64,000 nucleotides of DNA from assembly GCF_003334305.1 (NCBI RefSeq), contig NZ_QOWS01000001.1; one strand, written 5' to 3'. The position numbers were made by a program. The DNA is from Escherichia coli (GTDB lineage: Bacteria; Pseudomonadota; Gammaproteobacteria; Enterobacterales; Enterobacteriaceae). Below are positions 3,001 to 6,000 of the stretch, piece after piece (position 1 is the first letter of the stretch; each line of letters begins with the position of its first letter).

Positions 3001-6000
3001 CCGCGAGTTCTTCCAGACATTTCAGATATGCACACAGTGCATCTGCCTGTTTCACCAGCGATTTTTCTTCATCGCTATATGCATGCTCGTCAATTAACGG
3101 CGCAAAGATATCCCGCAGCTCTTCCGGAACCATATCGACCAGTTTTTGCTGAGCGATTTTTTCAATAGCCTTGTACTCCTGAGCGATTTGCGAATTGAAG
3201 TATTTCACCGGAGTAGGGAGATCGCCGGTGAGCACTTCTGAGGCATCGTGGTACATCGCCAGTAAAGCGATACGTTCGGCGTTGACATTACCGCCAAATT
3301 TCCGATTTTTGATAGCTGCCAGCGCATGGGCGACCATCGCTACCTGCAAACTGTGTTCGGACACATTTTCCGTCCGCACGTTGCGCATGAGCGGCCAGCG
3401 GTTAATGAGTTTCAGGCGGGAGAGATGGGCAAAAAAATGGCTCTGTTTCATAGTGACCTTACGTATGATGACATCATCAGGTCATTGTGGCGGGATAACG
3501 CTGCCGGATGCAATCTCCGGCAGTGAAATTAAGATTACAGCTGATGATAACCAGAAAGGAAACGCGCGAACTTGCTCAAAGACAGCTCGATATCATCGAC
3601 ACGCGGTAGCGTGACAATGCGGAAGTGATCCGGCCACGGCCAGTTGAATGCCGTCCCTTGCACCAACAGAACTTTTTCCTGCAACAGGAAATCCAGCACC
3701 ATTTTCTGATCGTCGTGAATGTTAAAGCGTTTGGCGTCGATTTTCGGGAACATATACAGCGCACCACGAGGTTTCACGCAGGAAACGCCCGGAATATCGT
3801 TGATCAGTTCCCACGCGCGGTTACGCTGCTCATAAAGACGACCGCCAGGGGTAATAAATTCACTGATGCTCTGATAACCACCCAGCGCGGTCTGAATGGC
3901 GTGTTGCGCAGGAACGTTAGCACACAGGCGCATTGAAGCCAGCATTTCCAGACCTTCGATGTAGCCTTTGGCGTGTTTTTTCGGCCCGTTCAACACCATC
4001 CACCCCTGACGGAAGCCTGCAACGCGGTACGTTTTCGACAGTCCGTTAAAGGTAATGGTCAGCAGGTCAGGTGCCAGCGGCGCAATTGAGTGATGCTCAG
4101 CGTCGTCGTAAAGAATTTTGTCATAAATTTCATCGGCGAAGATAATGAGATTATGCTGACGTGCAATCTCCACAATCTCCATTAAAAGCTCTTTGGAATA
4201 TACCGCGCCGGTTGGGTTATTTGGGTTGATTATAACGATCCCACGCGTACGAGGCGTAATTTTAGCGCGAATATCATCGAGGTCCGGGAACCAGTCAGAG
4301 GATTCATCGCAAAGATAATGCACCGCTTTACCGCTGGAAAGCGAAACCGCCGCGGTCCATAGTGGGTAATCTGGTGCAGGAACCAACATTTCGTCCCCGC
4401 TGTTCAGCAATGCCTGCATTGCCTGAACGATAAGCTCCGATACACCATTGCCGATGTAAATATCTTCCACGGTAACATCACGCATGCCACGAGCCTGGTA
4501 GTGCTGCATGATGGCTTTACGCGCGGAGTAAAGACCTTTGGAATCGCAATACCCTTGAGCGGTAGGCAGGTTGCGTATCACGTCAACGAGGATTTCATCT
4601 GGCGCGTCAAAACCGAACGGGGCTGGGTTGCCGATGTTCAGTTTCAGTACCTTGTTACCTTCTTCTTCCAGGCGTTTTGCTTCTTTCAGCACCGGACCAC
4701 GGATGTCATAACAGACATTCTCTAATTTGCTGGATTTTTCAATGGGGGACATGAATCTTGACCTTTTTTGCTGTTATCGCCACTCCCTGCCGTGGAAGTC
4801 AGCTTAGAACAATGTACTCCCCCAGGACGGTGTTTTGAAGGTCTGCAGAATAAGATTTTGCCAGAGGGGAAGGCTCGATTGTGCTGTTAATAACTTAATA
4901 ATGACAAAATAATGAGGTGTATATGCTTTACATGCAATGTTATATAGTGAATTGTTCTGATTCTTAATTGTAAGTCTGGTTTTTTTATCTGTAAGATAAT
5001 TGTGTGAAAATGCCTCATTTAAGAATTCACTAATGAAACGCGATGATGATATTTCCGCATTACGGAGAGTTTAACAGCGTGATGATTTCCGAGGTGTCGT
5101 AATGGGGGCAAGGTGTGAAACTATTGTTAAGCGGAATTAATGAATGAGGATGATGCTAATTAATTATTATTTAATATTCAAAAAGGTTTTGATGTGCTTA
5201 TTAATAATAGAAGATTACTTTGCCTAACATAACATAACTTTGCATCAGATAATTCGCAATGACCCTTATAAATAAAAGGTTTTTGGGGTAAAATGCTCGC
5301 ATAAATGACGGATCCCTGCTCTTGATGCCGCCTCACCATTGCTGTTTGTACGTGTTCGCGTATGACCAGCGATGCTGCACGAGAGTGGAACAAGGACTCA
5401 CATTTACATTTATACAAACACGCGCATGTCATAAATAGAAAAGAGTGAGTAACTTAATAGATATGCGATCCCTGAAGATATATTCTGTGATCTACTTCAG
5501 GCATTATAACGGAACAATGTGAGTCGCTTTTTTAGTGCAACTCATATGCATTTTTACTTTCGTCCGGGTTCCGGATGAAACTGCCAGGGAGGCACATTAC
5601 AAATGGAATTGCTTGTTTGTGTGTGCACAGCATTAACCAGCTCAGTATGAGCCGCCAGTAAGTGATAATATATGATAAGTGCAAATCGTCCGATAATTAA
5701 CCTCGACCTCGATCTGCTGAGAACATTTGTTGCTGTTGCCGATCTGAACACTTTTGCTGCCGCAGCTGCCGCTGTGTGTCGTACTCAGTCCGCCGTAAGT
5801 CAGCAAATGCAGCGTCTGGAACAACTCGTTGGGAAAGAACTGTTCGCTCGTCACGGTCGCAACAAACTGTTAACTGAACATGGCATTCAACTTCTTGGTT
5901 ACGCCAGGAAAATCCTGCGTTTTAATGATGAGGCCTGCTCATCATTAATGTTCAGTAATCTTCAGGGCGTGTTAACTATCGGTGCTTCAGATGAATCTGC

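Follow-up and report, generated by a model that had tools for sequence, protein, structure and literature searches.

The long intergenic region between alaA and lrhA of Escherichia coli, a probable compound regulatory region with an extended lrhA leader

The mRNAs of rpoS, csgD and flhDC, master regulators in the motility, biofilm and stress circuit of Escherichia coli, all carry long 5' untranslated regions (UTRs) bound by Hfq. These leaders are hit by several of the small RNAs (sRNAs) ArcZ, RprA and McaS, the flhDC leader also by CsrA, and many signals are integrated there post-transcriptionally. How does the region upstream of lrhA compare? We address this question for the spacer between the divergent genes alaA and lrhA in a stretch of 64,000 nucleotides of E. 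coli DNA (assembly GCF_003334305.1, contig NZ_QOWS01000001.1), referred to here as the window. The lrhA leader resembles those of rpoS, csgD and flhDC in being long, bound by Hfq and targeted by multiple sRNAs, and in belonging to a master regulator. The outcome of the pairing differs, as lrhA is repressed by UhpU, ArcZ and RprA, whereas ArcZ and RprA activate rpoS, and McaS binds lrhA without a detectable effect. Related genes are found further afield: RovM of Yersinia, HexA/PecT of Pectobacterium and Dickeya and PigU of Serratia, which we take to be orthologues of LrhA, belong to the same LysR family, and rovM of Yersinia is under Csr control. Those genera lie outside the Enterobacteriaceae sample compared here. 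The closest described system is the lrhA 5' UTR of E. coli K-12 itself (PMC10578931, PMC4152368, PMC5694010, PMC7815308), which is the same locus.

What does this spacer consist of? An earlier note, made from the sequence of the window, proposed that it holds both promoters and a long lrhA 5' UTR and no real open reading frame (ORF), and this interpretation is essentially right. The spacer is very probably a compound regulatory region devoid of protein-coding content, in which two promoters and AT-rich DNA are combined with a 371-nt lrhA leader acting as a control hub. Read from the alaA side, it would start with a sigma-70 promoter for alaA, whose short leader has a conserved hairpin near its 5' end. 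Next would come ~420 bp of AT-rich DNA, including a block (5113-5180) that presumably binds transcription factors or nucleoid proteins setting the transcription of lrhA and perhaps of alaA. The sigma-70 promoter of lrhA follows, transcription starts at A5301, and the leader so produced would serve as a post-transcriptional control hub. Published work has shown that Hfq binds this leader and lowers lrhA mRNA; that UhpU pairs around position -16 from the AUG, beside a weak Shine-Dalgarno (SD) sequence, and represses translation, with ArcZ and RprA repressing as well; that CsrA crosslinks to a GGA-containing segment (-117 to -31) and lrhA rises in a csrA mutant; and that short RNAs from the leader, with their ends at +80 and +322, accumulate. 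The end of the leader would be the place where CsrA, sRNAs and the ribosome compete, and its last ~85 nt may be conserved across the family because the sites for CsrA and sRNAs and the ribosome-binding region lie within them. Elsewhere in the leader, and over most of the upstream DNA, the sequence would evolve freely while the length is kept. As for the short leader RNAs, they most likely arise through decay or premature termination in the course of this regulation.

The spacer in E. coli and in the Enterobacteriaceae

The ORF listing and translation place alaA on the minus strand at 3535-4752 (405 aa, start codon 4752-4750) and lrhA on the plus strand at 5672-6610 (312 aa, ATG at 5672). Hence, the divergent spacer occupies window positions 4753-5671, exactly the 919 bp that had been estimated. 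The gene order yfbS, yfbR, alaA, lrhA, nuoA, with alaA and lrhA divergent, is found in the RefSeq annotation of K-12 and other strains, and the gene identities match the RefSeq annotation of identical or near-identical E. coli genomes. An annotated stretch of 41 kb has 38 intergenic gaps, of which this spacer is the longest (the runners-up measure 630, 417 and 338 bp), and its GC content of 38.3% compares with 51.7% for the window and ~50% for each flanking gene, so the description as unusually long and AT-rich holds. The composition is most extreme in the middle (4846-5265), AT-rich upstream regulatory DNA common to both promoters, mostly unconserved and with a GC content of 32.6%. No gene is annotated inside the spacer in the curated MG1655 record (NC_000913.3) or in any sampled genome annotated by the Prokaryotic Genome Annotation Pipeline.

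The spacer is a constant feature of the species. At least a partial match is present in all 5426 complete E. coli genomes, always on the chromosome; a single match covers at least 80% of it in 5384 of them, and with one exception the best match reaches an identity of 95% or more. Compared with K-12, five of the 919 positions differ and there are no indels, which means that published coordinates transfer exactly: the K-12 transcription start site (TSS), the UhpU site, the CsrA peak and the 3' ends determined by Term-seq all map onto the window base for base. Two of the five substitutions are C/G at 5300, position -1 of the lrhA start, and T/G at 5347. Nothing substantive distinguishes the leader from its K-12 counterpart; T5347 (G in K-12) lies inside the hairpin that precedes the 3' end at 5380 discussed below.

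Is the length of the spacer peculiar to E. coli? Orthologous loci were gathered through the LrhA protein from 80 species representatives, all Enterobacteriaceae with a LrhA identity of at least 74%. alaA lies divergently upstream of lrhA in 78 of them, and these 78, which keep the alaA 5' end, were aligned with the window (79 loci, more than 20 genera); sub-alignments of 46 and 48 species cover the alaA side and the 3' end of the leader, respectively. All sampled species have a long spacer (764-1140 bp, median ~945), and the leader implied by the conserved lrhA promoter measures 334-587 nt (median 397). In the conservation profile over the 79 species, four blocks stand out and no others are conserved: the alaA promoter with its leader hairpin (4758-4845), the AT-rich block (5113-5180), the promoter of lrhA and the final ~85 nt of its leader. 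Judging by this alignment, a long spacer and a long leader are family-wide traits of the Enterobacteriaceae despite a mostly unconserved sequence, and sequence constraint appears limited to the promoter modules, the AT block and the final ~85 nt with their CsrA and sRNA sites and weak SD.

Two records of the sample have unexpected labels. A contig assigned to Chryseobacterium sp. 18061 (L063) bears a typically enterobacterial alaA-lrhA locus and is for this reason probably contaminated or mislabelled. The record labelled E. coli SCPM-O-B-8794 (L004) encodes a LrhA 94.6% identical to that of the window and looks like a divergent Escherichia lineage.

Promoter and leader of lrhA

The TSS of lrhA reported by Melamed et al. 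(2023, eLife, PMC10578931) gives a 5' UTR of 371 nt, and the long leader suggested earlier from sequence is thus experimentally supported, with transcription starting far upstream of the start codon. The lrhA part of primer SM079, used for the PBAD-lrhA-lacZ fusion, begins ATAAATGACGG, which corresponds to window position 5301 and fixes +1 at A5301; the untranslated leader accordingly spans 5301-5671 on the plus strand. The sigma-70 promoter on the same strand (5266-5294) consists of a -35 element TTATAA (5266-5271), a 17-bp spacer and a -10 element TAAAAT (5289-5294) ending 7 nt upstream of the published +1. Its -10 element conforms to TAnnAT in 79/79 species, the -35 element is TTATAA in 64 and the 17-bp spacing is kept in 78. 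Together with the conserved sigma-70-like alaA promoter (4811-4839), this places both promoters within the spacer, as had been surmised. A consensus scan of the spacer returned three promoter-like sites (3.3 expected) and one terminator-like site (0.8 expected), and missed the true lrhA promoter because its -35 element is weak.

The leader as a whole folds at -112.4 kcal/mol (z = -2.76 against shuffled sequences). Outside Escherichia there is essentially no conservation over its first ~280 nt. The last ~85 nt contain, in the 48-species alignment, GGA motifs, AAAUGGAAUUGCUU, CACAGCA, the weak SD and a small hairpin that varies. Which regulators act on this end? One is UhpU, which represses a lrhA-lacZ translational fusion by direct pairing: repression is lost with UhpU-M1 and restored with the compensatory lrhA-M1 (PMC10578931). 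The lrhA-M1 mutation, as given by the gBlock in the supplement of that paper, is a C to G change at window position 5656, 16 nt upstream of the AUG. The pairing site (5650-5665, plus strand) adjoins and extends over the weak SD TAAGTGA (5659-5665), which points to canonical occlusion of the ribosome-binding region. The site sequence GCCAGT (5654-5659) occurs in only 8 of the 48 species, all in Escherichia, Citrobacter and Salmonella, and this apparent restriction to a lineage agrees with a published evolutionary model in which the UhpU-lrhA pairing is a recent acquisition (PMC12704781).

ArcZ and RprA likewise repress the lrhA fusion and form chimeras with lrhA in RNA interaction by ligation and sequencing (RIL-seq). 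McaS gives the most RIL-seq chimeras with lrhA and does not repress it, and the authors suggest inhibition of McaS (PMC10578931). CACAGCA (5626-5632, plus strand) is complementary to the UGCUGUG seed common to RprA and McaS; its A and G at 5629-5630 are invariant in the 48 species and CACAGC is kept in most, making it a likely RprA/McaS site, though a lead only. CCAGGGA (5585-5591) is the likely ArcZ site.

Hfq also binds RNAs from this region. Bilusic et al. (2014, PMC4152368) co-immunoprecipitated with Hfq RNAs of 150 and 350 nt, first named 'ig-lrhA-alaA', and the same probe revealed a ~1.5-kb lrhA transcript that is raised in an hfq mutant. CsrA adds a further layer. Crosslinking and immunoprecipitation with sequencing (CLIP-seq) placed peak_226 over 5555-5641 (plus strand, -117 to -31), and both ribosome footprints and RNA of lrhA increase in a csrA mutant (Potts et al., 2017, PMC5694010). 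This in vivo peak coincides with conserved GGA motifs, retained at 5588-5590 in 27 of the 48 species and at 5605-5607 in 41.

Some observations weigh against this account of the spacer as two promoters, AT-rich regulatory DNA and a 371-nt hub. A shorter lrhA 5' UTR had been annotated earlier (noted in PMC4152368), and a weakly conserved TATAAC at 5505-5510 is a candidate for a second, proximal lrhA promoter. Such a promoter may give a leader of ~155 nt and may be tied to the 'short 5' UTR' and the 150-nt Hfq-bound species of that study. RNAalifold predicted no consensus structure for positions -120 to +30, where the alignment upstream of -70 is poor. Windowed duplex energies between sRNAs and the leader (-19.7 to -22 kcal/mol) are no better than those of shuffled leaders (means -19 to -25), which means that the ArcZ, RprA and McaS sites are not independently confirmed; whole-molecule RNAduplex predictions for ArcZ, RprA, McaS and UhpU against the leader gave global hybrids without meaning. 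No binding factor could be matched to the block at 5113-5180, and on the alaA side the TSS and promoter are drawn from conservation only.

Reading frames and short RNAs in the spacer

Could the length of the spacer instead reflect a gene, or what is left of one? The sole ORF of at least 60 aa lying wholly within it (5178-5432, minus strand) is uninterrupted in this strain, starts with ATG and would encode 84 aa. Yet the 25 nt upstream of the ATG (TTAAGTTACTCACTCTTTTCTATTT) contain no SD-like purine run, the frame is shifted in the divergent E. coli lineage and interrupted by stops in E. albertii and all more distant species, and the ORF overlaps the conserved lrhA promoter and the TSS on the opposite strand. 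It is annotated in none of the sampled genomes. This frame is not a gene, and the view that no convincing ORF exists here is sound; the description of the ORF as low-complexity is not, as the residue entropy is 4.05 bits (10 Leu, 9 Ser and 6 Cys). Decay of a lineage-specific gene does not fit either, since the length and the same conserved blocks are maintained in 79 species of more than 20 genera. We consider it extremely improbable that this ORF or a gene remnant accounts for the spacer.

Another rival reading is a translated upstream ORF (uORF) in the leader that affects lrhA translation. Both a 28-codon ORF (5575-5661, ending 10 nt before the lrhA AUG) and a 15-codon ORF (5603-5650) exist, GGAGG (5588-5592) sits 10 nt upstream of the ATG at 5603, and the 28-codon ORF is intact in E. 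coli, in the divergent E. coli lineage and in E. albertii. Within Escherichia, however, the nucleotides are identical, making conservation of the frame there uninformative. Beyond it, Citrobacter, Salmonella and Enterobacter differ in frame and length, the sequence around the ATG at 5575 is not conserved, and 23 of the 48 species retain the ATG at 5603 against 41 for the overlapping GGA, which indicates constraint on an RNA motif and not on a reading frame. The segment is moreover the CsrA CLIP-seq peak, and nothing is annotated there in the curated MG1655 record. A functional uORF thus seems very unlikely to us. The suggestion that the spacer might harbour small proteins finds no support: together with the 84-aa ORF there are 13 candidates, and the other 12 (15-50 codons) lose start, frame or stop outside Escherichia, such that none combines a conserved start, frame, stop and ribosome-binding site. 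In our literature search on ribosome profiling we found no paper naming lrhA.

What about small RNAs? Published data show more than the alaA and lrhA mRNAs in this region, because short leader RNAs are detected. Under two growth conditions, the Term-seq of Adams et al. (2021, PMC7815308) identified an 'orphan' 3' end at K-12 position 2406933 (window 5380), which defines an 80-nt 5'-proximal leader RNA (5301-5380, plus strand) that ends just 3' of a stable hairpin (5334-5377), with no U tract. A second leader-internal end on the plus strand, at 5622 (K-12 2406691, position -50), corresponds to a 322-nt leader RNA and was seen in lysogeny broth at an optical density of 0.4. It has an intrinsic terminator score of 3.75 (threshold 3.0) and a Rho score of 1.06, outside the range of a Rho region (PMC7815308); in this respect the lrhA leader differs from the rpoS, csgD and flhDC leaders, with no Rho-dependent attenuation detected at -50. 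The 5622 end follows a predicted A/U-rich hairpin, ACAAAUGG-AAUUGC-UUGUUUGU, with a GU-rich tail. Among the Term-seq rows listed from the lrhA terminator to yfcH there is no other 3' end in the spacer, and a literature search for lrhA with Rho or bicyclomycin returned nothing. Both ends look like products of processing or of weak termination.

The earlier proposal of sRNAs at this place is therefore borne out in part, as short RNAs derived from the leader exist (the Hfq-bound 150- and 350-nt species and the ends at 5380 and 5622), and fails in another, as there is no sign of a free-standing sRNA gene. For such a gene, with its own promoter and terminator, one could invoke the 'orphan' label of the Term-seq ends, but both ends lie on the lrhA strand downstream of the lrhA TSS, and the probe that detects the short RNAs also sees the 1.5-kb lrhA transcript. 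Promoter- and terminator-like sites in the spacer do not exceed the shuffle expectation, and apart from the promoters, the AT block upstream and the end of the leader, no block is conserved. Rfam 15, run on both strands of window 4400-7300 at E <= 1, yielded no relevant match, in the spacer or elsewhere; its three hits, to two miRNA families and an Aggregatibacter sRNA, are chance-level, far below the gathering scores and outside the spacer. We regard a free-standing sRNA gene as highly improbable.

A function for the leader RNAs themselves (5301-5380 and 5301-5622), as an sRNA sponge, for example for McaS, or as a regulated premature-termination switch, is less improbable, and we would still call it rather unlikely. 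Speaking for it are the discrete RNAs of 150 and 350 nt that Hfq pulls down and that total RNA hardly shows, the defined 3' ends (one after a stable hairpin, the other with a terminator score above threshold and independent of Rho), and the many lrhA chimeras of McaS, which does not repress and for which the authors suggest inhibition. On the other hand, the 80-nt species lacks any mapped or inferred sRNA site and is poorly conserved outside Escherichia, our own scan found no terminator-like site on the plus strand of the spacer, and no phenotype in trans has been reported. As would be expected of a cleavage product, the RNA ending at 5622 stops 4 nt before the proposed RprA/McaS site.

The alaA side, upstream DNA and insertions

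On the other side of the spacer, conservation delineates a putative alaA sigma-70 promoter (4811-4839, minus strand) with a -35 element TTCAAA (4839-4834), a 17-nt spacer and a -10 element TACATT (4816-4811). Both hexamers are nearly invariant in 46 species and the sequence between them is variable: along the alaA strand, an invariant TTCAAA is followed by 17 nt of free sequence and then by an invariant GAGTACATTG. In the 79 species, the -10 element and the ATG are 52-59 nt apart, which is plausible for a promoter of this gene. Our literature search on regulation of alaA by Lrp gave no alaA TSS, and nothing was found on alaA as a target of GcvB. The proposed leader (4753-4810, minus strand) would be ~50-58 nt long, with an SD AAGG ~10 nt before the ATG.

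This short leader contains a hairpin (4782-4799, minus strand), ACUUCC-ACGGCA-GGGAGU, with a 6-bp stem and a 6-nt loop. Neither the loop ACGGCA nor the two inner C-G pairs vary among 46 species of more than 20 genera, and 96.7% of the alignment cells are paired. Is this a structured RNA or a palindrome in the DNA? The closing pair covaries from A-U to G-C in eight sequences, and another pair alternates between U.G and U-A, which favours pairing in the RNA. We found no published function for this hairpin and no Rfam match to it. That the short leader RNAs are functional, or that the hairpin is an undescribed cis-regulatory RNA or protein-binding element controlling the synthesis of alanine transaminase, or both, is a tentative idea to which we would give only a small chance.

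Between the two promoters, the only conserved element is the AT-rich block at 5113-5180 (-190 to -120 from the lrhA TSS), kept over the 79 species. Its consensus, TgTgAA..tAaTGtTaAg..t.ATTaATgaat...aATTAAt..ttaTTTAtTAtt, holds one TGTGAA motif and two ATTAAT motifs, and the block is probably a site for a transcription factor or nucleoid protein. Neither a CRP-like half-site (TGTGA, 5114-5118) nor an RcsAB-like box (TAAGAATTCACTA, 5021-5033) was retained as a candidate, each being too weak or lacking conservation. Peaks of RNA polymerase holoenzyme obtained by systematic evolution of ligands by exponential enrichment (in the RpoH and RpoE sections) have been located in the lrhA/yfbQ spacer (PMC5493296).

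The spacer is also a recurrent target of insertion sequences (IS) in natural E. coli genomes. In nine of the 40 top-ranked records the match is split over an IS1 transposase coding sequence. Judged by 9-bp target duplications, the six loci retrieved contain at least four independent IS1 insertion sites, and elements in loci L002 and L088-L093 lie at 5130-5140, 5211-5219, 5466-5474, ~4919 and 5071-5074. Two independent IS1 insertions fall at 5130-5140, at most 2 bp apart and inside the conserved AT block, which thus coincides with an IS1 hot spot. One strain carries an IS1 in the lrhA leader and its lrhA is also frameshifted, another has IS1 at ~4919 followed by elaD/rbn in place of lrhA, and in a further one a 109-bp IS5-derived miniature element occupies the TTAA at 5071-5074. 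The spacer is split into two places in 28 genomes, probably by larger IS elements. What could such insertions do? Tn5 insertions in the spacer were enriched ~2^9-fold among hypermotile ST131 cells (PMC5425062), and in these data spacer insertions behave like loss of lrhA function. The recurrent natural targeting by IS1 fits selection on motility.

Downstream of lrhA, the spacer to nuoA (6611-7240) is likewise long (630 bp). CLIP-seq peak_225 of CsrA covers the lrhA stop codon and 3' UTR, which also serves as the nuoA 5' region. An 'orphan' 3' end of very high abundance in the Term-seq data lies at K-12 2405082 (about window 7231), ~10 nt upstream of the nuoA start codon, and the 'primary' 3' end of lrhA (2405672) sits upstream of the terminator hairpin.

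What does this mean for E. coli and its relatives? The region is among the better-documented leaders of the species; the observation that drew attention to it is accurate and already known, and with the role of the leader experimentally established it adds no new biology. Three loose ends are worth mentioning: the invariant hairpin of the alaA leader, the AT block kept across the family, and the part, if any, played by the short leader RNAs. For the hairpin and the RNAs we found no explanation in print. The additions made here are modest: the family-wide length of spacer and leader, the restricted sequence constraint, the lineage-restricted UhpU site and the recurrent targeting by IS1. LrhA represses flhDC, and with it motility, as well as type 1 fimbriae and rpoS/rprA, and it activates type I-E CRISPR-Cas in E. 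coli. With so broad a regulatory reach, its long leader becomes a meeting point of many signals.

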